Source of the DNA: Nostoc sp.
GTDB lineage: Bacteria; Cyanobacteriota; Cyanobacteriia; Cyanobacteriales; Nostocaceae
Direction of reading: 5' to 3'
Assembly (NCBI GenBank): GCA_036918135.1
Contig: JBALDB010000018.1
Coordinates: 1 to 64,000 of the forward strand
DNA: 64,000 nt
Made by a program: the position numbers and the translations under genes. Under the pieces are notes generated by a model. It did no database searches. It was not told the DNA's origin and worked only from the letters and a program-made list of their open reading frames with translations. The stretch's first letter is position 1, and the number at the start of each line of letters is the position of its first letter. Of the stretch, positions 33,318 through 50,274 are shown piece after piece.

Positions 33318-35993
33318 ATGGCTGATACAAACGGCAACGGTAGAAATGTCATTATTTTTGTGGCGGATGGATTGCGTAATGGTTCTGTAAACCCGACTGA
33401 CGCCCCAACTTTATATAGCATCCGCCAGCAGGGAGTTAATTTTACTAACAGTCATTCGCTATTTCCGACATTTACCACTCCGAATGCTTCGGCGATCGCC
33501 ACAGGACATTATCTTGGAGATACAGGTGACTTTAGCAATACTGTCTACACTGGTTTTCCTGTTCCTAATGCTAACGGCAGTGTCACACCATTCATCGAAA
33601 ATGATGCAGTTCTCGGAGATATTGACGAAAAGTTTCCTGGAAACAACTTTCTTGATGAAGAGTCACTGCTATCCTATGCACGGGCGCAAGGCTTCAATAC
33701 CGCTGCAATTGGTAAGCTAGGGCCAGTTGCCATCCAAGATGTCACACAAGTAAACCGAGATAGCGGCACTGATAGCAATATTCCCACCCCAGATACTGTA
33801 ATTATCGACGATCGCACAGGTGCAGCAGCTAATCCGGTAACAGGTTCACCTCAAGCTGTACCACTCGATCCTGATATAGCAGCTCGTCTAGAAGCAGTTG
33901 GCCTACCCACTACAACTCCTGGTAGAGGGGCAAATGGTAATTCTGGCAATAACACAACTCCTGGAACTACAGTTGCCAATGTTGACCAGCAACAGTTCTT
34001 TATCGATGCCACTACCAAGGCAGTTCTCCCGAAGTTTCAGACAGAGGATAAACCATTCGTATTGGTTTACTGGTCAAGAGACCCTGACGGAACTCAACAC
34101 AATCAAGGTGATAGCTTAAACAGTTTGACACCGGGCATCAATGGTGATACTTCCAAAGCTGGAATCAAGAATGCTGACAATAACTTAAAGCAGCTTCTTG
34201 ATTACCTCAAAAGTACAGGTTTGGACAAAACTACAGATGTCTTTATTACTGCTGACCACGGTTTTTCCACCATCAGCAAACAAGTTACTGATAACCAAGG
34301 CACAACAACAAATAGTTATGCTGCAACTCAAACCTACGCTGGTGTCAATCCTGGATTTCTACCACCAGGTTTTGTTGCGATTGATTTGGCTCACGATTTA
34401 AATCTACCTTTATACGATCCTGATAAAAATACAGTCACTCCTTTAGACATCGATAACATTCAGTATGCTGCTGTTGATGCAACACAAGGTCAACGCCCGA
34501 CAGCTGGGAATGGTGTAATTGGCGGTAGCGGTCAGGTAATTGATGGCCACCTCGACTCAGCCACAAAGGTAGTTGTAGCTGCTAACGGTGGTTCGGATCT
34601 GATTTATTTGCCCAATGGTAATGCTGACCTAGCCAAACAGGTAGTGAATTTGCTTTCGCAAAAAGACTACATCAGTGGTATTTTCGTAGATGACGCCTAT
34701 GGAAACATTCCAGGTGCTTTACCACTAAGTGCGATCGGGCTAAAAGGTAATGCTCAAACACCCGTTCCAGCGATTGTAATCAACTTCAAAACCTTTAGTA
34801 CCGACCCAAATAACCCAAACAACCCTCAAGCTGAGGTAGAGATTGCTGACACAGGCTTACAACAAGGGCAAGGGATGCATGGCAGTTTTGGTCGGGGCGA
34901 TACCTTCAATAACATGGAGGCTATTGGCCCTGATTTCAAATCAGGTTATGTAGACTATGCACCTGTCAGTAATGCTGACGTAACACCCACACTCGCTAAG
35001 ATTTTGGGTTTGAATATTCCTAGTAATGGCGATTTGAAAGGTCGTGCCATCACAGAGGCATTAGTGGGAGGGCCTGATTCAGTCTCCTTCACCCAAGGAA
35101 CCTTGACTTCAGAAGAAGCTGCTAACGGTCAAACAACAATTCTCAACTATCAGAGTGTAGGTAATACTCAGTACTTTACAGCAGCAGGGTTTGCCGATCG
35201 CACTGTTGGACTATCAACATTAGATGTTGATTTTGGTACTACAAGTAGCGATGATGTCACCCTCAAGTCAAACCAAACCTTATTCACAGGCGACGGAGCA
35301 GACTTTGTAGAAGGTACTACAGGTAACACAATCCAGACTGGCAATGGTGATGACACTGTATTGGTAGGCAGTAACTCTTCAGTATCCGCAGGAGACGGAG
35401 ATGATAATGTCTTTATTGGTCAAAATGGTGCTGCTAGCAATACCAGCGCTGATGGTGGCAATGGTGATGACCAAATCACAGTAATCGAAGCCAATGGTAG
35501 TAATAACCTATTTGGAGGCGCAGGTGCTGATACTCTGACAGTAGTTGAAGGTTCGCGTCAATTATCCTTTGGTGGTTCAGGTAAGGATACCCTCAAGAGT
35601 GAAGGTAGCAATAACCGTTTGTATGGTGGTTCTGGAGATGACAAACTCTTCTCTGGTGTCAATGACTTGTTGTTTGGTGGCGATGGCGATGATGTGCTAT
35701 TTGCTGGTCAAGGAGGTGGTAATAGCCTCAGTGGCGGTACTGGTGCAGACCAGTTTTGGATAGCCAATGGCAGTTTACCAACTAGCAACAACACCATTTC
35801 TGACTTCAGCATCGGTGTTGACAAAATTGGACTTGGTGGTATTGGTGTCACTCAATTTAGTGCCTTAACTCTATTGCAACAAGGTAGTGACACTTTAGTG
35901 AAAATCGGAAATACACAGTTGGCTTCATTAGTTGGAATTACCTCAACTAGCCTTACAGCAAATGACTTTGTTTTTGCTGCTAGTGTGATTTAG
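33318..35993 (+). CDS. alkaline phosphatase-superfamily nucleotide pyrophosphatase/phosphodiesterase with RTX tail
   Basis: [15 protein letters not shown] (catalytic Thr), DPDGTQH, TADHG, GMHG. Confidence 0.88.
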
Positions 35994-36274
35994 CCAAAAG
36001 ATGATTACAGCTTAAATTCAATATTCCAAATTAACTAATGCTGTAATGATTTTGCTTATACGAGGGAGTGATACTCCTTCGCTTTTTATATGAGCAACGT
36101 GAAACCCAACATGGATAAGGATGTTGGGTTTTCTAATTGTGGAGTGGGTGTCTCAGTTGTCTGGAACAAAAGACGGGTAAGATACCTACCCCACAAGATT
36201 AGATAATTTATTTGTTGGAAGTCCTTAATACTTACTCTCATAACCTACGCTAATCCGTATTTGTTCAAAAAATT

Positions 36275-36323
36275 TGTAGTATCTCCTTGACAATATGTAT
36301 TTTATATATTACAAATGTAGTAT
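36275..36323 (+). promoter_or_regulatory. promoter with two TGTAGTAT operator boxes
   Basis: TGTAGTAT at 36275-36282 and 36316-36323 flanking TTGACA (36287-36292) and TACAAA 17 bp downstream. Confidence 0.65.
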
Positions 36324-36365
36324 GAGAACAAAAGCTTTTCTAAAAGGCTAAGGCAAAACATCTCA

Positions 36366-36385
36366 GAACCTAGAAAACCGAATAG
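36366..36385 (+). promoter_or_regulatory. rrn-type boxA antitermination-like element
   Basis: GAACCTAGAAAACCGAATAG resembles the cyanobacterial rRNA ITS boxA (GAACCTTGAAAA) and following motif; small hairpin upstream. Confidence 0.6.
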
Positions 36386-36401
36386 CAAGTTACGACTTTT
36401 T

Positions 36402-36482
36402 GGGGTCGCGATTGGTGTTCGACTGCTCCGAAACCAACAAACGGACGGTAGCAGGATTCGGGTTCAATTCCCGACGACTCCA
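36402..36482 (+). ncRNA. mini-tmRNA (tRNA-like domain only, no tag reading frame)
   Basis: GGGGTCG/CGACTCC-A acceptor with G3.U70; tmRNA-type D region TGGTGTTCGAC; T arm TCGGG-TTCAATT-CCCGA; short helix 2. Confidence 0.8.
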
Positions 36483-36499
36483 CTGACTTCTACTTGTTT

Positions 36500-36706
36500 G
36501 GGTCTGTAACTCTAATGGTAGAGCGCCCAGATTCACTTGTGCTCTGACAGAAAAAGCTTACATACTTGCTCAAAGGTAGAGCGATCGTCTCTAAAACGAT
36601 AAGTGCAGGTTCAATTCCTGCGGTGTAACCACAGCTTTTTCAACTCGCACGAAGTGTGAGTGCAACTCTCACAGGGAAGGTATCGGTTCAATTCCGATCA
36701 GATCCA
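36500..36706 (+). ncRNA. handle RNA 1: Ala-identity tRNA shell whose anticodon arm holds a handle carrying a second tRNA-like body (CUA anticodon)
   Basis: Outer GGGTCTG/CAGATCC-A with D and T arms; handle 36539-36650; inner cloverleaf 36558-36631. Confidence 0.8.
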
Positions 36707-36732
36707 CTAAATAATTTGTAATTCGTAATTAA

Positions 36733-36948
<216 letters not shown>

Positions 36949-36961
36949 AATATTTAGTTAA

Positions 36962-37141
36962 CCATGCCCTAACAGAAGAAGCATACATACACATTCATAA
37001 CGATCCTAAGGTAGTAAAATTCGAGCGATCAAACTAGCGAAGTATGATTTATAAATTTTTTGCAGATTTAGCATACGTGCCCACTGCCAATAGTTGGTAA
37101 GAGCGATCGTAAGCTGTAAAAAGCTTCTTAAACTTGTACGG
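36962..37141 (+). ncRNA. handle RNA 2: circularly permuted 23S rRNA domain IV (H67-H71) mimic
   Basis: Handle motifs at both ends; ATAACGATCCTAAGGTAGTAAAATTC (36997-37022) resembles 23S 1916-1941; 37078-37112 resembles truncated H68 plus the H69 5' strand. Confidence 0.75.
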
Positions 37142-37156
37142 ATTAATTGAAGAATT

Positions 37157-37300
37157 AATTCCGCGCCCTGACTTGTAAAGCATACAAACATATATCCGGT
37201 AACGGAATACAGGTTCGATTCCTGTCGCTCCCTTTGATGGGAGCGTAGCCAAATTGGTAAAGGCAACTGTGAAAACTGCTTTGCTAACTTGTGCGGAATT
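37157..37300 (+). ncRNA. handle RNA 3: YrlA-like RNA with a circularly permuted class II tRNA domain
   Basis: Order: variable arm, T arm, acceptor stem CGCTCCC-tttgat-GGGAGCG closed by a loop, D arm; enclosed by the handle. Confidence 0.85.
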
Positions 37301-37361
37301 TCAATTATTTAAAATAGTAGTGTTTAGAGCAAGCCTTAGTGATTTTTCAAAACTAAAACTT

Positions 37362-37491
<130 letters not shown>

Positions 37492-37649
37492 TATAAATAT
37501 TAGATTTGGCAAAATTTTGATTGAGTGGAGGAAACTTATGCTCAAAGCTTTTAAAGACAGATTTTAAATAAAAAATCTTAATTTTAAAGCTATTAACTGG
37601 AATTAAAAACAATACTATTTATTGCAATTTAATATGATTTGAGGCTGCT

Positions 37650-38030
37650 ATGTCTGTGAACACTCTAGAAATTTTAGAGCAAATCAAGTCTCTAAATGTC
37701 AATGAAACCGCTCAATTAGTAAAGCAGATTGAAGCAACTTTCAATGTCGATATATCCACACCTAAATTCCTTAAGATTGACAAGCGAGATGAGGATGAAA
37801 CTCAACCGCAGATTCAAACGGAATTTGATGTCTTGTTGGTATCGGTTCCAACAGAGAAAAAGATTGCCTTACTCAAGGTCATCCGGACGGTGACTGGACT
37901 GGGACTCAAAGAAGCAAAAGACTTTGTAGAATCCCTGCCTCAAGTAGTTCAAGCAGGACTGAATCAAGAAGCGGCTGAAATTCTTAAGCAGCAGCTAGAG
38001 GAAACAGGAGCAGTTGTTTCTCTGATGTAA
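37650..38030 (+). CDS. rplL: ribosomal protein L7/L12 paralogue
   Basis: QTEFDVLL, KKIALLKVIRTVTGLGLKEAKDFVES; not next to rplJ; atypical charged hinge. Confidence 0.9.
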   Translation: MSVNTLEILEQIKSLNVNETAQLVKQIEATFNVDISTPKFLKIDKRDEDETQPQIQTEFDVLLVSVPTEKKIALLKVIRTVTGLGLKEAKDFVESLPQVVQAGLNQEAAEILKQQLEETGAVVSLM

Positions 38031-38095
38031 CAGAATTAGTCAAACAGGGAGTGTTGACTGCTGAGTTACGAATTCTCACTATCTTCCCAATCCTT

Positions 38096-38207
38096 GGCAG
38101 TTGTTGCTGCGCCCCGATAGCAGAAGCTTACATAACTCTGCATAAGTTATACACGATGCTTCTACAACTTGCGTGGTGACTGTATCGCCCCGCGTGCAAC
38201 ATCTGCC
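38096..38207 (+). ncRNA. handle RNA 5: minimal version with a lone anticodon-like stem-loop
   Basis: Handle 38107-38176; cargo ATAACT-CTGCATA-AGTTAT; outer helix GGCAG.TGTTGC/GCAACA.CTGCC. Confidence 0.75.
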
Positions 38208-38223
38208 TCCTCATCCATCATAA

Positions 38224-39672
<1,449 letters not shown>

Positions 39673-39807
39673 AGTACATCAGGGTGCGTTATGGTTACTC
39701 ATCACGCATCCCGATCTTATTCCATCATATATCCTCACTTTTATTGATTTACAAAGTTATAGTAAATTCTGTAAATTTAACTTATTATTAACTAATTCAA
39801 TTTGTTA

Positions 39808-40914
39808 CTAAACACCAAATAGGTACTTAGCAATGCTTTTATTTTTCATCAGAATGAATACAGCTAACCAACTCATGATAAAAGTGGGTAGAGAAAATGC
39901 TAATTGAGAAATAAAAGTTACTTCATCTAATAACTGAGGTTGAGTTTTCTTCAGATAAATCTCCATAAAATTAATTCCAAATAGGTGTATCAAGTAAATT
40001 CCAAAAGAACATAATGCTAAATTTCTTATGACGCTGTTTGGTTTTAAGTAATTCGATAAAACAATACCGTATAATAAAAGAGAATATCCCAGAAAAACTT
40101 CCCGAAAACCAGTAAGTATTGGGTTACTATAAACGTCAGCAATAAGAAATAAACCTAATAACAAGTAAGCATATACGAGTTTCACACGCAACAATGAAAA
40201 GTTGGTTTTAAGAAGTAAATACCTTAAAGTCATTGCAATAAAAAAGTAAGGTAAACACCTCAATAACCATGCTACTTCTATAGATATAAACCTCAAAAAC
40301 TCATTTTTAGAAGGCTCGTAATTCACTAGATTAAATAAATTATTAAAAGCTATATCGTTATGTAAATCTACTGTATTTCCAGTAATTAAAAGCAGGTTGT
40401 AGAGGATGAGGCTCAACAGAGACAAACTAGCTAATATTTTAAGTCCAATTTTCGGTTTTGCGAAGTAATTTGCAAATATTATGAGCGAAGTACCTACTAG
40501 CAATAGCGGTAAATAGTATAATTGATATGATGCTTTTCCATAAAATATAATTAAAAAAGGATCTCCTAATAGATGATTTAATTCTTCTTTTTGATTTGAT
40601 GCTGAAAACATAATTATTTTGGCAATCAGATAAATAACTGTCCAAACTATATATGGTATTAGGAGACGCCGACATCTTGCTTTCCAATAAGTTAATGAAA
40701 AGTCAGCATTCGACTTACAAATCATGAAGTAGAAAGATGCAGCTAAGAAAAAGGGAACAGCAAAACTAAATAGATATTGTATCTCTTGGGAAAAGTAACT
40801 TGCACGATCCCGATTTGGATCGGCTGAATGTAGTAAGACAACTGCGTATGCCGCGATTCCTCGGCACAAATCAACACCCGATAGCCTTGGTTTTGCCTCT
40901 ATTTTTGACTGCAT
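39808..40914 (-). CDS. acyltransferase family 3 membrane protein
   Basis: DLCRGIAAYAVVLLH, FAVPFF, RRLLIPY, SFGIYLIH; AT-rich. Confidence 0.9.
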   Translation of the reverse strand: MQSKIEAKPRLSGVDLCRGIAAYAVVLLHSADPNRDRASYFSQEIQYLFSFAVPFFLAASFYFMICKSNADFSLTYWKARCRRLLIPYIVWTVIYLIAKIIMFSASNQKEELNHLLGDPFLIIFYGKASYQLYYLPLLLVGTSLIIFANYFAKPKIGLKILASLSLLSLILYNLLLITGNTVDLHNDIAFNNLFNLVNYEPSKNEFLRFISIEVAWLLRCLPYFFIAMTLRYLLLKTNFSLLRVKLVYAYLLLGLFLIADVYSNPILTGFREVFLGYSLLLYGIVLSNYLKPNSVIRNLALCSFGIYLIHLFGINFMEIYLKKTQPQLLDEVTFISQLAFSLPTFIMSWLAVFILMKNKSIAKYLFGV

Positions 40915-40976
40915 TGTTAGTATTAAAGTAGATTTTTTGAAAAAATAAAGTATTCAAGTGGTTTTTTGTTTATAGA

Positions 40977-41119
40977 TAGGACTTATGCACTTTACACATT
41001 GACTATCATGTGGATGGTAGGCTCGTTAAGCTAAAAGTCTTGCCCTGCCTCGTTCCCAGATTCTGCCTTGTAACGATAGGTAAGCCACAGTTGTTATCTC
41101 TGTGAATGCATAAGTCCTA
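40977..41119. repeat. MITE-like element with 13-bp inverted ends
   Basis: TAGGACTTATGCA ... TGCATAAGTCCTA. Confidence 0.6.
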
Positions 41120-41240
41120 ATAAAGTTAACCAATTAATATTAGAAATACCATACCATATAAAACCCGATTTGATTTATGAAAACATCATGAGACTAAAAA
41201 GCCCGTTTTATCTAAAATCTTATTCAAAAATTAAATATGA

Positions 41241-41549
<309 letters not shown>

Positions 41550-41707
41550 TGAAATCATTCTGCGTATGCAGATAAAGGTTTTGATGCTCTGAGTAATTTA
41601 GCTTTTTTGTCTTTGTTGAAATAAGGCTGTAAATTAAAGGGTTTAAGATCCGCTTTGTAGGCATAACTAGCAGCCAAAATATTTACCGGAAAGTAACAAG
41701 TGTTAAT

Positions 41708-41725
41708 TGTAGTATAATGTAGTAT
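41708..41725 (+). promoter_or_regulatory. tandem TGTAGTAT boxes overlapping a TATAAT -10 element
   Basis: TGTAGTATaaTGTAGTAT; TATAAT at 41713-41718, just upstream of handle RNA 6. Confidence 0.7.
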
Positions 41726-41735
41726 TAGAATCTCA

Positions 41736-41938
41736 TGCGTGCCCCAACTCGTGGAGCCTACATATTAGTACGAGAGGAAGGTAACACTGCCGAATGCAGT
41801 GGGCGTTAGTGAACGGGGAGTGCGAAGAACCTGGAAAGTGGGCTTAGAAGTAGCCATCTTTGAAAGAGTGTGTAACAACTCACCAGCGGAGTCCCTCTAG
41901 TAACTGAGAAAACGCAATGCTCCACCAACTTGCACGCA
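41736..41938 (+). ncRNA. handle RNA 6: sarcin-ricin loop plus GTPase-associated centre (H42-H44) mimic
   Basis: AGTACGAGAGGA at 41767-41778; 41830-41887 colinear with 23S 1051-1108; handle TGCGTGC/GCACGCA. Confidence 0.85.
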
Positions 41939-41976
41939 GAATTATACAGTAATCTTAAATTATTCGTTAGAACCAA

Positions 41977-42010
41977 GATACCCGACTTCTTTTGAAAAGT
42001 TGGGTATCTA
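41977..42010. terminator. hairpin between RNA 6 and the convergent gene
   Basis: AGATACCCGACTT...AAGTTGGGTATCT inverted repeat. Confidence 0.6.
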
Positions 42011-42030
42011 AACCCTACTGAGCGATAAAA

Positions 42031-42423
42031 TTAAAGTTTACTTTCAGTCTTTGACTTTAATACCTGTATCGCTTTGAATCCTTCTATAGTCTGACCTAAA
42101 AATATCATGGGAATAATCAAGCCAAACGGTTTACCTGTTTGAATCGTATTGTAAATGCCAGTTAACGCATTTAGCGACATCAATCCTACTGCAATACCTA
42201 GTGCAATTTTTGATTTACGTTGTACAAAAAAACCTAGAACTAGATAGAGTAAACCAAAACCTAAAAACCCAATTCCTAATATTAGATAATCAGGCAATCG
42301 ATTACCAACGATAAAGAATATTATGCTTAGGAAAATACTCAAAATTCCAATTGCGTAAACTGCACGATAAGCAGATGCTAACTTTTTTCTGGACTCTGAC
42401 ATCTGTTGTATTTCGGTAGTCAT
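42031..42423 (-). CDS. small integral membrane protein
   Basis: Four hydrophobic segments. Confidence 0.75.
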   Translation of the reverse strand: MTTEIQQMSESRKKLASAYRAVYAIGILSIFLSIIFFIVGNRLPDYLILGIGFLGFGLLYLVLGFFVQRKSKIALGIAVGLMSLNALTGIYNTIQTGKPFGLIIPMIFLGQTIEGFKAIQVLKSKTESKL

Positions 42424-42551
42424 GCTTTTTCTATTTTTTGGGTTTATTGAGAGTAAATAATGTAGAAGCTATAGAACTTAAAAGATATATTTTTTATATA
42501 CTTAAATTTATAAATTTGCTTATGTAATTTTGCTTAAAAAAACGATAATTT

Positions 42552-43382
42552 ATGACTGACATCCGTAAGCTAATCAACCAAATTGCTAGCGCAGAAGCAC
42601 AGTTGTGTAATACTCAATTTCTTGCGCCTTGTGTAAAAGGTGGACGAGTTCGCACACGAGTAGTAGGGATGGTCTATACCTTCACACCAAAGCCGAATAA
42701 ATTTGAAGGTTGGGGTATTTTTCAGCCGGTGGATGAGAAGATAGCAATGGTTGTGGAAGAGGCAGATTTACCTCAAATTGCCGAATACCTGCAACACTTT
42801 CCCCAAATACGGCTGCGGCTAGCATACCAACTGCGGGGACAAAGTTGGTTAGCATACCCCGTGAATGAAGCAGATATACGTCAACGGTTGCAGGTGGTTA
42901 AACCGATCGCCATTCATCTAGTAACTGAAAGTATTATTTTTGACCAAATCATCGCCCGTTGGAATGGACAGTCCTGCTGGTTTGAGGAAATCGATCATCG
43001 TACCGATCCGGCTATTGTTGAAACTCTGCAATCAGCTGTTAAGCAACTGATTCCCGTTGAAGAATTGCAATTTAAAGGCATAACGCCAGAAATTCGCACA
43101 GTCTATGAATTAGCAACACGGCAAATTGAAGGCTTTGGGCAACCCCAACAGGATGAAAAGCGATTGAGAAAGGCATTGCAGATGGGTGGCGGTGAATTAA
43201 AGCAGTTTCACGATCGCGGTGATTACTGGACAGTGGACTGGACAACTGCTGATGGTGTTCGCCACAGTAGTGCGATCGCCAAAACTGACTTGACTGTAAT
43301 CAGTTCTGGTATTTGCCTAAGTGGATACGATCGCAACTTTGACTTGCAATCGTTAGTTGGTGTAATGGAACAACAAGAGTAG
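42552..43382 (+). CDS. hypothetical protein with C-terminal SGICLSG motif, directly upstream of ThiF
   Basis: 276-aa ORF, 24 bp upstream of the ThiF gene; family not recognised. Confidence 0.85.
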   Translation: MTDIRKLINQIASAEAQLCNTQFLAPCVKGGRVRTRVVGMVYTFTPKPNKFEGWGIFQPVDEKIAMVVEEADLPQIAEYLQHFPQIRLRLAYQLRGQSWLAYPVNEADIRQRLQVVKPIAIHLVTESIIFDQIIARWNGQSCWFEEIDHRTDPAIVETLQSAVKQLIPVEELQFKGITPEIRTVYELATRQIEGFGQPQQDEKRLRKALQMGGGELKQFHDRGDYWTVDWTTADGVRHSSAIAKTDLTVISSGICLSGYDRNFDLQSLVGVMEQQE

Positions 43383-43406
43383 TAAGTGTATTAATTACGA
43401 ATTATT

Positions 43407-44045
43407 ATGAGTATCTTTTTTCACGAACAGCTTTACCGCAGCAATGCTGTGATGGCAAAGTTGAAAAACTATCCTGTAACAATTTGTGGGGCGGGGGCGT
43501 TAGGGGCTAATATTGCTGAGAATATGGCTCGGTCTGGTTTTGATAAACTGACAGTAATCGATTGCGATCGCATTGAGGAGCGTAATCTTTCCACCCAGCC
43601 TTACTACCGTTCCGATGTTGGAGCATTCAAAGCAAAAATATTGGCAAACAATTTATACCGAGCAATTGGTACTAAAGTTGATGCTAAAACCAAAGAATTG
43701 ACATCAGCAAATGTCAATCAACTACTCCAAGATAGTCAATTAATTATTGATGCTTTTGACAATAGCGTAGCACGTCAATTAGTAAAAGATTATGCCACTC
43801 AATTTAGCATTCCTTGTCTTCATGCTGGGCTAGCAGTTGATTATGCAGAGGTAATTTGGAATGATGTTTATCGCGTTCCTTCTGAGGTTAATGATGATGT
43901 TTGTGATTATCCTTTGGCACGAAACTTAGTAATATTAACCGTTGCTGTAGTATCGGAAGCGATTGTTTCATTTATTGCCACAACAGAACGGCGTAACTTC
44001 ACCATCACTTTGAAGGATTTGACTGTTCAACCTTTGTTTTTGTAG
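43407..44045 (+). CDS. ThiF/MoeB/E1-like adenylyltransferase
   Basis: GAGALG, D.DRIEERNLSTQ, KA, IIDAFDN..AR; lacks CxxC zinc pairs. Confidence 0.92.
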   Translation: MSIFFHEQLYRSNAVMAKLKNYPVTICGAGALGANIAENMARSGFDKLTVIDCDRIEERNLSTQPYYRSDVGAFKAKILANNLYRAIGTKVDAKTKELTSANVNQLLQDSQLIIDAFDNSVARQLVKDYATQFSIPCLHAGLAVDYAEVIWNDVYRVPSEVNDDVCDYPLARNLVILTVAVVSEAIVSFIATTERRNFTITLKDLTVQPLFL

Positions 44046-45339: not shown

Positions 45340-46822
45340 TTTGCCGTAATCTCCTTTCTAAAGTAGATGCACCGAAGGTCAAACCCATGACCAAAACATA
45401 ATAAATTAATCCTGCAAACAGTAAGGGTTCAAAATAAATATATTTATTTGCACCAACGATTTGGGCACTGCGTAATATTTCTACCACACCAATTGTTGAC
45501 ACCAGGGCGGAATCTTTCAACAGTCCAATAGTTTCATTTACTAATGCTGGTAGAATGTTCTTCAATGCTTGGGGCAAAATCACATCCCACATCATCAACC
45601 AATAGGGAACACCCATAGACATCGCCGCTTCACTTTGCCCTTTATCTACTGCTTGAATCCCACCCCTGATGGTTTCCGACATATAAGCGCCAGAATTCAA
45701 GGTAAAAGTTAACACCCCTGCCTCCAATGCCGAAATCTTATAGCCTGTAAGCTGGGGTGTTGCGTAGTAAACCAACGCCAATTGTAACAGCAAGGGTGTG
45801 CCTCGAAAGATAGAAGTGTAAGCATTAGCAACCCACGTCAGCGGCTTAATCCCGATAATTTTAGATAGAGAGAGTATTGTTCCCCAGATTAAACCCAATG
45901 TTACGGATAATAGCGTAAACAACAAAGTTAAAGGGATGCCCCGCAGAATAAAGGGAATATCTGGAAATATTCTCCTGATGTCAAAATTTAATCCTTTTTT
46001 GGCAGGAGTTGAGGATGTAGTATCGGTGATAATATTCTCAGAAAACCACTTATTTACTAATTGATTTAATCTGCCATTCTCCTTCATTTGTTGCAAGACT
46101 TTGTTAAAAGGTTCGACAAAAGCAGAATTTTTGGGAAAAGCGATCGCCGATCCACTTGCTTCTTCTGAAGGGATAATATTAAATTCTAAATCTGGATTGG
46201 CTTGGGCAAATCCTTTAGCAACGGTATCCTCAACAATTGCCGCATCAATTCGCCCAGATTTAATTTCTTGAACTACTTCGGGAACTTTATTAAGTTGCTT
46301 TATTTGAATGCCTGTAACTTTTTGAGCAATTTTTTTCGCATTTTGCTCCTGTATAGTTCCTAGTTGTACCCCAACTTTTTTTCCCGATAAATCTTGTGGC
46401 TGCTTGAGATTGCTACCCTTAACAGCAACAATCGTATCTTTGGCTTCATAATAAATAATTGAAAAATCAACATTTTTCTGACGTTCTGGAGTTGGAGTCA
46501 TCCCCGCCATTACAAAGTCTGCTCGATTTGCTTGGAGTGCAGGAATTAAGCCATTAAAATCCGATTCCATAATTTGAAGTTTAAACCCTAGTTTTTGAGC
46601 AAGGGTTTTGGCAATATCTATATCAAAGCCAACAATTTGACTTTCACCTGTTTTAGTATCGTAAAATTCATAAGGCGGATAATCTGGTGAAGTAATCATC
46701 GTTAGCGTGTCTTTCCCTAAAGATGAAGCAGCTTTGAGAGACTCGCTATATCCTGTGATAATATTGATTGCTACTATTAGTGCAAAGAATATCGTTAATA
46801 GCCATACTCTTGTTTTTTTCAC
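45332..46822 (-). CDS. polar amino acid ABC transporter, fused binding protein and permease
   Basis: SBP family 3 (YPPYE, GFDID) plus permease (RGTPLL, EAA loop). Confidence 0.93.
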
Positions 46823-47015
46823 GGGCTTGAGAATTATTTAATGGATTTGACAATTATATAAATCCACTCTCATTTTGCCAGGATTCTAACAATTACGATT
46901 TCTGTACGACCTTAACGAAAAAATATCATAGAGACGTTGCATTGCAACGTCTCTACATCTGTTGGAATAGCTTAAGATAGCTGTATCTTCCCGTCTACAC
47001 ACATAGCCGAGTGAA

Positions 47016-47540
47016 CTACTCGCTTTCATTCATCCGTTGTACGCTCCAAAAATGTTCTGCAAATGCAACGGCGGGGTGAATTGGAGCTTTAGGCTTGGTT
47101 TTGAGTACCATAGATGCTTCATGAGGTAAGCGATCGCTCTTAGTTGAGTTACACTTCTCGCAGGCAGTTACAACGTTATCCCAACTATGCTGTCCACCTT
47201 TGGAACGAGGAATCACATGGTCAAGGGTTAAACGCTTACCGCTACCACAGTATTGACAAGTATGATTATCGCGCTTGAGTACTTCACGACGATTTACAGG
47301 AGGTACTTTCCAGTGTCGTTCTGGATTACCCGTTGTCAAACGAATGTGTTCCGGAACTTGTAGTACAATACTGGGCGAGCGGACTTCCCACTGCTTTGTA
47401 CTGCCAAAATTCAATGATTCTGCTTGACCAGTAACTAACAGTACTATTGCTCGTTTGATGTTGATACGTGCCAATGGTAAGTAGTTCTTGGAGAAGACTA
47501 CCACCGAATTTTGTAGTATGTGTGGCTGCTGAACTTGCAT
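47016..47540 (-). CDS. HNH endonuclease
   Basis: RDNHTCQYCG..LTLDHVIPRSKGG..WDNVVTACEKCNSTK; ATG at 47540 with GAGGAG RBS. Confidence 0.93.
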   Translation of the reverse strand: MQVQQPHILQNSVVVFSKNYLPLARINIKRAIVLLVTGQAESLNFGSTKQWEVRSPSIVLQVPEHIRLTTGNPERHWKVPPVNRREVLKRDNHTCQYCGSGKRLTLDHVIPRSKGGQHSWDNVVTACEKCNSTKSDRLPHEASMVLKTKPKAPIHPAVAFAEHFWSVQRMNESE

Positions 47541-47556
47541 GGATAAAGAGCTCCTC

Positions 47557-47596
47557 AAAAAAATAACCCCCACTTCTGGTTATCAGCAGCGGGGGT
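47557..47596 (-). terminator. terminator/attenuator immediately upstream of the HNH RBS
   Basis: ACCCCCGCT...AGTGGGGGT-TATTTTTTT on the minus strand. Confidence 0.75.
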
Positions 47597-47835
47597 CAGG
47601 TAGTTGATACTTTTTGCCTGTTTATAGGTGCTATCAAACAGTTGCACCTCCCGCTGTGGATTATTCGATCCCAATTGACCACTAGAGCGATCGTGAAAAT
47701 ACTTTCACTTGCAGATTTAACCCCCAATAACCAATACGTCCTCTCAAACGCACGCGCACCAGGTGTTCTGCCTGTACCCTTGCTCGGTTGACAATGCATC
47801 ATGCTATTAATGGTTGAAGAGAATCTGGTTATCAT
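47596..47835 (-). CDS. putative leader ORF
   Basis: 79-aa ORF whose TGA abuts the terminator stem. Confidence 0.4.
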   Translation of the reverse strand: MITRFSSTINSMMHCQPSKGTGRTPGARAFERTYWLLGVKSASESIFTIALVVNWDRIIHSGRCNCLIAPINRQKVSTT

Positions 47836-47843
47836 CGAATTTC

Positions 47844-47860
47844 TGTAGTATTTGTAGTTT
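47844..47860. promoter_or_regulatory. TGTAGTAT/TGTAGTTT boxes upstream of the HNH unit
   Basis: Same motif as at 36275, 36316, 41708 and 41718. Confidence 0.6.
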
Positions 47861-48159
47861 AAATTTATTGTATAATACAACTTGTAATATTAATTTGTCT
47901 AGTGCCAATATTTCTAGAGGATGACGACAGATAATCTGCCGAATATCCAAAGCTTGAACAGCATATTCTCTAATTATGACACTTTCACAGCCATTAGTTG
48001 CCCCAAATGAATTTTCTGTAAAGATATCAGCTCGAGTTTATCCAATTAATGAGGACGGTATTAACTGTACCGATGAATGGGACTATTGGTATTAAATTTA
48101 GTAACCTAGAAAAGTAGATGTTTATATTTCCAGATAGAGCCACTCGACTATCAGTCTAA

Positions 48160-50274
<2,115 letters not shown>

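Follow-up and report, generated by a model that had tools for sequence, protein, structure and literature searches.

A circularly permuted copy of the 23S rRNA helix 69 junction in a Y-RNA-like unit beside a Ro-like gene of Nostoc

Particles of Ro proteins and Y RNAs are widespread in bacteria, but very few species have had the partners of these particles identified. To our knowledge, the modules carried by Y RNAs were previously known to mimic tRNA only. Mimicry of rRNA in ribosomal-protein leaders is reportedly treated in a 2018 review by Meyer. In the literature outside most subscription journals, tRNA-mimicking bacterial Y RNAs and rRNA-mimicking leaders are both described, and we found no rRNA-mimicking Y RNA there. 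The closest described RNAs are those of the YrlA type (RF02553). According to the available part of PMC4201824, Rsr acts in 23S rRNA maturation and a Y RNA tethers a nuclease. The Nostoc locus reported here resembles the YrlA-type systems in that part of PMC4201824: a Ro60/Rsr-like gene adjoins the RNA, and there are often several RNAs per locus. The ends of the RNA pair to give an extended stem in which an asymmetric internal loop separates an outer from an inner stem, the far end is a module imitating a translation RNA, and an AACUUG-type motif that is also present in the Rfam YrlA consensus lies in the 3' strand. The Nostoc RNA differs in its cargo, which copies 23S rRNA rather than tRNA, and in its handle, which has no match to the Rfam YrlA stem.

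The window, a stretch of 64,000 nucleotides, is DNA of a Nostoc-type cyanobacterium. Positions 36300-38200 hold an array of short genes with common ends, which we call the handle. Its 5' halves were located at 36539, 36964, 37165, 37369 and 38109 (n=5), each with a matching 3' half. A strict handle pattern, which missed one side of the units at 36539 and 41737, found no handles outside the array locus. The element under study is the second handle-flanked unit of the array, at about 36961-37142 on the + strand (~180 nt), and every sequence feature described in the original prediction was found where it had been placed. From its 5' end, the handle consists of an outer stem, P1 (36961-36967, pairing with 37136-37142 in RNAalifold and weakened by an A.C and an A.A in the Nostoc strain), the 5' side of an internal loop (36968-36975, with a motif kept in 5/5 of the 5' handle copies of the array) and an inner stem, P2 (36976-36982, pairing with 37123-37129). 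P2 varies in its letters among array units and retains its pairing. An inner handle or linker segment with a conserved ACAUAC-type motif, common to all array units, follows at 36983-36996. The 3' half of the handle (37113-37142) contains a linker, the P2 3' strand (37123-37129), an AACUUG-type internal loop and the P1 3' strand (37136-37142).

The other units of the array carry cargos of a more familiar kind. That of the first unit is tRNA-shaped (36559-36628, anticodon CUA), as is another at 37389-37462, and the cargo at 37208-37264 is a permuted tRNA-like RNA with a match of 24 bits to the Rfam YrlA model. A tRNA-like domain of tmRNA lies ahead of the array at 36402-36485 (43 bits). Neighbouring units resemble YrlA in having a T arm, a closed acceptor and a D arm, and units in diverse homologous loci matched Rfam YrlA at 31-40 bits, some over the full length of the model, compared with a gathering score of 69. 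The 23S-like unit itself gave no YrlA match, either in 36990-37115 at E<=10 or in a scan of 35900-43000, where the match of the neighbouring unit stayed at 24 bits, below the cut-off of 69. Neither ARAGORN nor the Rfam tRNA model found anything in the 23S-like unit. The element is thus set apart from YrlA by both the Rfam score and the missing tRNA-like module, and is otherwise Y-RNA-like. The arrays also differ from YrlA systems in holding near-canonical tRNA-shaped cargos and a bL12 paralogue, and in being accompanied by a divergent, shorter Ro protein of 477 aa.

The ORF for this protein (38239-39672, + strand) lies 1.1 kb downstream of the element and encodes a Ro60/Rsr-like protein, the presumed handle binder, with a TROVE ring and a vWA domain bearing a MIDAS DxSxS motif. 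Pfam detected the vWA domain only, and phmmer gave a weak match to TROVE proteins. A profile built from the protein family matched human RO60 (E 5.9e-16), Xenopus Ro (1.2e-12) and D. radiodurans Rsr (1.5e-6). When the AF2 model of the protein (pLDDT 91.7) was searched with Foldseek, Ro60, Rsr and TROVE proteins made up the best 12 matches listed (ranks 1-13), over the full length and with TM scores of 0.63-0.71. The protein is 80-93% identical over many cyanobacterial genera. By analogy, the handle is best interpreted as the stem of a Y RNA. The YrlA-like layout, the shared motif, the YrlA-like neighbouring units and the Y-RNA literature, as far as the available part of PMC4201824 goes, suggest that the Ro-like ring binds it.

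To compare the cargo with rRNA, 23S of a genome of the same genus (G001) served as the reference, since the Nostoc assembly itself lacks a complete 23S. The 5' cargo (36997-37022) corresponds to the last three bases of the H69 loop, the 3' strand of H69 and the junction strand that leads up to H70, and was identical to reference positions 1906-1931 at 23/26 positions. We take these to be approximately E. coli positions 1916-1941 (an offset of +10). The original assignment of the 5' cargo to 23S 1916-1941 (23/26) was upheld against the same-genus 23S; its local alignment to 23S had a z of 6.6 and was reached by 0/1000 dinucleotide shuffles. A 5'-cargo profile built on 30 homologues was run against a search space of the complete 7.66-Mb genome plus four 23S copies. 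The four 23S copies ranked right behind the element at E 0.0011, and the next match had an E of 0.67. A coincidence with the HIP1 repeat, which had been named as a possible source of part of the match, did not hold up: the HIP1-like octamer GCGATCGT is mostly confined to the Nostoc strain and is incidental, because most homologues show the 23S-like letters at this site.

The 3' cargo was weaker by sequence. Its segment at 37077-37090, which comprises a junction strand and the 5' side of both the H68 base and the stub, was identical to 23S 1819-1832 at 10 of 14 positions. Its end at 37094-37112, with the H68 3' strand, the junction, the H69 5' strand and two loop bases, matched 23S 1884-1903 at 13/20. 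Aligned on its own to full 23S, the 3' cargo was not significant, 78/1000 shuffles scoring as high; when the target was limited to the 110 nt immediately preceding the first 23S match, 12/5000 did so. A profile of the 3' cargo did not recover 23S among the 25 best genome matches, and in 13/30 homologues its best 23S alignment lay elsewhere. The permuted order scored 50.5 against 23S and the native order 37.0, and when the 5' cargo was kept and the 3' cargo shuffled, 0/2000 sequences reached the permuted score. The permuted alignment that the original prediction had proposed as a check is therefore significant. Rfam cmscan of 36990-37115 returned no match at E<=10, the LSU model (RF02541) included, and in 18 diverse loci the element had no Rfam LSU match at E<=0.01; this is expected for an element that is permuted and trimmed. 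Across homologues, the best 23S alignment of the whole RNA ran from 1899/1906 to 1924/1931 in 30/30, and 29/30 homologues outscored 300/300 shuffles.

Unguided folding of the alignment by RNAalifold yielded the outer stem of the handle and four further helices, namely a 6-bp stem that joins the two ends of the cargo, a hairpin and a helix of 5 bp each, and a stub of 6 bp. Set against the secondary structure that Rfam gives for domain IV of 23S, the RNAalifold helices match the H69 stem, H67 and the H68 base. The 23S-like structure, with the pairs of the H68 base included, was then scored on two alignments. On A1, made with MAFFT, 96.2% of cells were paired, and 14 pairs had double changes compared with 5.8±1.5 in column shuffles (0/500). 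On the wider A2 (30 sequences), 94.4% of cells were paired, and double changes occurred in 28/45 pairs compared with 15.5±2.0 in shuffles (0/500); slid controls on A2 were 29-41% paired. Relatedness among the sequences inflates these covariation counts, and A2, having been fitted to the model, leans its way; A1 agrees with A2. In the handle, double changes were seen in 4/6 pairs of P1 in A2 (columns 2-8/219-225), with covariation in A1 too (columns 6-12/196-202), and in 4/7 pairs of P2.

Within the cargo, the H69-like stem pairs 37000-37005, the equivalent of the H69 3' strand, with 37105-37110; it was found by RNAalifold and has double changes in 4/6 pairs (A2). The original reading of this stem as rebuilt, with G.U replaced by A-U and C-G by U-A, is right when judged against the same-genus 23S. 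The H67-like helix (37042-37046 with 37072-37076, spanning 37042-37076) carries an AU-rich cap hairpin (37052-37058 with 37064-37070). RNAalifold recovered it independently and it covaries, which bears out the helix and cap that had been described. H68, likewise said to be cut to a stub, was returned by RNAalifold and covariation as a remnant of 5 bp with a 3-nt loop (37086-37098). In the stub, 100% of cells were paired and two distal pairs covaried. The pairs of the H68 base and stub include 37079-37104, 37080-37103, 37084-37101 and 37085-37100. Pair 37080-37103 in the H68 base is C-G in 16 and U-A in 14 sequences of A2, with zero breaks. Compared with 23S, the H68 base has one G-C flipped to C-G and retains the neighbouring U-A and the bulge. 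An RNAalifold pairing of alignment columns 88-90 with 131-133 was dropped for the 23S-like pairing 133-163, because the latter had 10 double changes and no breaks and the rival pairing changes on one side only. The place of H70/H71 is taken by a 5-bp hairpin with a GCGA loop at 37020-37033, with one C.A mismatch in the Nostoc strain. In this hairpin 99.3% of cells were paired and 3/5 pairs had double changes, and its loop is mostly of the GNRA type across homologues. A UUC/GAA pairing resembling H70 had also been considered and was dropped, as distant homologues back the local tetraloop hairpin.

These results support the conclusion that the element copies the 23S junction of H67, the H68 base and H69 in circularly permuted order, with the structure preserved and the opening at the H69 loop. 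The original prediction of a permuted mimic of H67-H71 stands for H67, the H68 base and H69 and fails for H70/H71, where the tetraloop hairpin is found instead. Its call for homologue covariation was answered by H69 and H67 pairings that are present and maintained, as part of the 28/45 pairs with double changes (15.5±2.0 in shuffles). As far as letters and predicted pairs reach, the element is a mimic at the level of sequence and secondary structure. It shares with 23S domain IV (RF02541) the H69 stem, the junction strands, the H68 base with its U-A pair and bulge, and an H67-like helix. It differs in that the order is permuted, H68 is 5 bp, H67 is capped, H70/H71 gives way to a tetraloop hairpin and, in the clade of the Nostoc element, the H69 loop gives way to the handle. 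The element measures about 115 nt, compared with about 150 nt for H67-H71 of domain IV.

Conservation was assessed at three levels. Among 201 family genomes searched at the DNA level, 45 had matches at E<=0.01, full-length in 32; 30 of the full-length copies (the Nostoc genome included) were 80-89% identical and two were 69% identical. A covariance model built from the 32 full-length family sequences then found a full-length copy at E<=1e-10 in 18 of 151 genomes of the order, in at least 11 families. With the same model, the element was not found outside the order in a phylum sample of 151 genomes. The element also lies upstream of the rsr-like gene, on the same strand, in 44/80 Nostocales loci; these 80 loci were fetched through the neighbouring Ro-like protein and represent close Nostocales only, so that the diversity comes from the covariance-model searches.

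The searches also turned up an alternative architecture, in which the complete H69 loop sequence is kept. It is seen in nine homologues of other families (L122, L123, L154-L158, L161 and L162). Aligned to 23S from 1899/1901, they were identical at 25/31 to 30/33 positions, with 27-28/28 in six. In these loop-keeping homologues the 3' strand breaks the third H69 pair (7/30 cells unpaired), and MFE folds contained a local upper H69 hairpin in 3/9. Their letters fit an upper H69 hairpin above a 3-bp lower stem, and the handle would enter through the 5' strand of H69. The proposal that the handle replaces the H69 loop thus describes the clade of the Nostoc element and does not extend to these nine homologues, which keep the loop.

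A second 23S-like unit was found in the window. The sixth handle unit, at 41737-41940, copies the sarcin-ricin loop region (SRL; 14/14, 23S 2643-2656) and H43/H44 (27/31, 23S 1086-1116), the latter with an Rfam LSU match of 51 bits. Since this sister unit copies SRL and H43/H44, rRNA mimicry is a recurrent feature here. The array also contains a bL12 paralogue (37650-38030), which lies about 500 nt downstream of the element and is 50% identical to a second copy on contig C27. Directly upstream of the element lies a conserved ORF of 66 aa (36748-36948, + strand), which precedes the element in 32/32 close and 16/18 diverse loci and heads the operon in distant relatives. It has an invariant C-terminus with a final Gly and matched no Pfam or NCBIfam family. 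Foldseek with its model returned weak ubiquitin-like matches only (E>=0.2), and a ubiquitin-like nature is a guess from that model. RNA-library contigs from a relative of about 90% identity span both 36739-37313 and 37342-37492, with word depths of 69-789; this signal, from three runs of one study on one relative, indicates presence and not ends, strand or level, and falls short of proof of transcription or processing. Positions 37554-37619 and 37950-38147 were without cover, from which no inference was drawn.

The promoters of the arrays point to a link with translational stress. In Anabaena PCC 7120, the available text of PMC10272220 gives TGTAGTAT as the sequence where footprinting placed TrcR, at the trn operon's -10 box, and reports that TrcR also represses rtcB, rsgA and rimK and that translation inhibitors relieve the repression. 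In the window, TGTAGTAT occurs doubled before both arrays, at 36276/36317 and at 41709/41719. The first pair belongs to a candidate array promoter (36275-36324, + strand) with the two TrcR-operator-like motifs on either side of a TTGACA. Pairs of the 7-mer core on the same strand and at most 60 nt apart occurred 8 times in the 7.66-Mb genome, the two array sites being the sole exact doubles. In 23/46 homologous loci the motif stands no more than 400 nt ahead of the first ORF, doubled in 13, and it also precedes one copy of rtcB. TrcR would thus be expected to control the array through these candidate promoters, as judged from the operator matches. No trcR-like ORF was recognised in 46800-48300. 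The text and searchable supplements of PMC10272220, as available, mention no vWA, TROVE, Y RNA or array, and work on the cyanobacterial tRNA operon mentions no vWA, TROVE or Y RNA. The arrangement resembles the Salmonella rsr-yrlBA-rtcBA RNA-repair operon, in which, by the available part of PMC7790460, Ro, Y RNA and RtcB seem to be co-regulated upon damage to the translation machinery. Unlike in that operon, as the same part describes it, the Ro array and rtcB are linked here by a common operator rather than by one operon.

Taken together, we think it somewhat probable that the element is the gene of a Y-RNA-like ncRNA of ~180 nt, whose handle docks the Ro-like ring and whose cargo, the permuted domain IV junction, presents a 23S-like surface. 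The two halves of the handle pair into a conserved bipartite stem, on which the ring would dock, as with Y RNAs. The cargo would offer its 23S-like surface to a ligand of that region of the 50S interface and so join the ligand to the ring. Candidate ligands would be a domain-IV-binding factor, a modification enzyme or the 30S platform (bridges B2a-c). The array would be switched on together with rtcB as TrcR repression lifts in translational stress, and the element would presumably function during such stress as a Ro-tethered surrogate of rRNA. Many 50S contacts could not be copied, because H70/H71 and most of H68 are absent.

The same surface could instead act as a decoy or sensor. The cargo would then bait a ribotoxic nuclease or an antibiotic that binds H69, and the Ro-like ring would hold, report or dispose of the decoy once it is damaged or has bound the drug, sparing the ribosomes. 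We regard this as possible and rather doubtful. The cargos of the arrays (tRNA-like RNAs, the tRNA-like domain of tmRNA, SRL with H43/44, and the H69 junction) would suit it, being of types that are classic targets of ribotoxins and translation inhibitors. So would array promoters with the operator of a regulon that is induced by translation inhibitors and includes rtcB. The H69 loop and H70, however, are the parts most often attacked or bound by drugs, and in the clade of the Nostoc element the handle takes the place of the H69 loop and H70 is absent. Linkage to a nuclease, toxin or resistance gene was also not seen in the loci examined.

It is unlikely, in our judgement, that the module is a substrate mimic that titrates or recruits the enzymes modifying or processing H69-H71 and thereby couples Ro to 23S maturation or decay, much as tRNA enzymes act on the tRNA mimics of YrlA-type RNAs. 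This would fit the nine homologues from other families that keep the whole H69 hairpin loop, the loop being the modified part in E. coli. A role of Rsr in 23S maturation and a nuclease tethered by a Y RNA, as described in the available part of PMC4201824, would provide an analogy. In the clade of the Nostoc element, however, the loop bases to be modified are missing, and the proposal overlaps with the preferred reading of a Ro-docked 23S-like surface rather than being clearly separate from it.

The bL12 paralogue about 500 nt downstream raises the question of an autoregulatory leader that mimics rRNA and controls this gene or the small ORF upstream. Mimicry of rRNA in leaders is a known principle, and like the element, ribosomal-protein leaders are short RNAs copying an rRNA site. 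Those leaders, however, are cis-acting parts of mRNAs that copy the site of a single ribosomal protein, whereas the element is stand-alone, flanked by a handle and beside Ro. The 23S interface junction that it copies is largely protein-free in the ribosome, and we know of no binding of bL12 to domain IV. The element shares its enclosing handle with the tRNA-like units, has two further units between itself and the bL12 paralogue, overlaps no ribosome-binding site and lies downstream of the small ORF. It is also kept at loci, for example L037, that showed no bL12 paralogue in the stretch examined. A leader is therefore very improbable; handle, position, conservation and covariation speak against it, as they do against a chance likeness. 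That the element is a chance likeness or a decaying rRNA pseudogene fragment, helped along by a HIP1-like palindrome, could appeal to the missing Rfam match, the weak sequence of the 3' half and the HIP1-like octamer of the Nostoc strain, yet this scarcely credible reading is refuted by conservation over the full length (69-89% identity in the family and at least 11 families) and by compensatory changes, with the 23S match at the identical place in 30/30 homologues and the HIP1-like letters missing from most of them.

A broader and speculative proposal, which we hold with considerable doubt, extends the preferred reading of a Ro-docked rRNA surrogate to the whole locus. The arrays might encode a set of Ro-tethered ribosome surrogates, namely the H69 junction, SRL and the GTPase-associated centre together with a bL12 paralogue of their own, and shapes of tRNA and tmRNA. 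Under translational stress, on relief from TrcR, these might engage the 30S subunit, translation factors, or ribosome-directed toxins or drugs off the ribosome, and the Ro-like ring and RtcB might triage or repair the translation machinery. The element itself would then be a pseudo-50S interface docking on the 30S platform.

The element extends bacterial Y RNAs from mimics of transfer RNA to mimics of the ribosome. A single operon supplies naturally occurring copies of defined ribosome sites (the H69 junction; SRL and H43/44), together with a dedicated bL12 paralogue and an operator that links it to a known regulon of translational stress including rtcB. The minimal domain IV junction fold, backed by covariation, could serve structural work and studies of antibiotic binding. 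The function of bacterial Ro becomes a matter of testable pairings between each module and the ligand of the ribosome site it copies, in tractable Nostoc strains.

Several units of the array resemble tRNA or tmRNA. A miniature tRNA-like domain of tmRNA, which does not include the mRNA-like part, was found at 36402-36485 on the plus strand with a candidate promoter directly 5' of it; its Rfam tmRNA score of 43.2 bits (E = 8e-15) lies under the gathering score of 47. Immediately downstream, the plus-strand stretch 36498-36712 seems on visual inspection to be nested: acceptor, D arm and T arm (36498-36535 and 36655-36712) form an outer frame of tRNA type, in which the handle, the conserved bipartite stem with internal loop common to the array units, appears to take the place of the anticodon arm and to enclose a second tRNA-shaped RNA (36559-36628) with anticodon CUA. 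The fifth handle unit (38109-38180, +) lies directly upstream of the Ro-like gene, has a cargo of only about 25 nt between the handle strands and showed no family match.

A sixth handle-flanked unit was identified further downstream (41737-41940, +), again with cargo matching 23S rRNA: 14/14 positions against the sarcin-ricin loop region and 27/31 against H43/H44 of the GTPase-associated centre (Rfam LSU, 51 bits). The same LSU fragment match was present in G004, a genome of the same genus. Directly upstream of this unit, part of the Ro-like gene recurs (41241-41552, +; 93% DNA identity to 38989-39167), which suggests that the locus has been partly duplicated.

Motifs resembling the operator of TrcR, the repressor of the Anabaena translational-stress regulon, precede both arrays and one rtcB copy (G000:C46, in the source genome). 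These TGTAGTAT motifs occur at 36276/36317, 41709/41719, 47510-47520 and 47838-47860; the doubled motif at 41709/41719 lies 5' of the sixth unit, and others are close to the minus-strand gene of an HNH endonuclease (47016-47573). The TrcR regulon, as published, likewise includes HNH genes (PMC10272220).

Protein genes also accompany the RNA units. The array encloses a bL12 paralogue (37650-38030, +) that has both L12 domains of Pfam, N and C, and scores 101.6 bits against TIGR00855. It showed 50% identity to a second copy at G000:C27:9354-9734. Within the limited flanks covered, it was also seen at 15 of 32 close loci and at 5 of 17 others from the diverse set. The model of a conserved 66-aa ORF (36748-36948, +), with an invariant C-terminal ...RPEAVYG, weakly resembles a ubiquitin-like fold. 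Six kb 3' of it (region 42552-44045, +) lie two further genes: one is ThiF/E1-like (43407-44045, +; Pfam ThiF, E = 1.1e-28), the other a 276-aa ORF without family. Together the three possibly form a small-modifier system.

In two homologous loci, L127 (G275:C30; 14 tRNA matches and one tRNA-Sec) and L152 (G354:C32; 10 tRNA matches), handle units stand beside long arrays of canonical-scoring tRNAs (34-76 bits), reminiscent of cyanobacterial stress-induced trn L-arrays. The complete H69 loop sequence was kept in L122, L123, L154-L158, L161 and L162 (approximately 1501-1690 in each). In these loci the handle seems to interrupt the H69 stem on its 5' strand and so to create a three-way junction; a single RNA family would then have two permutation points.
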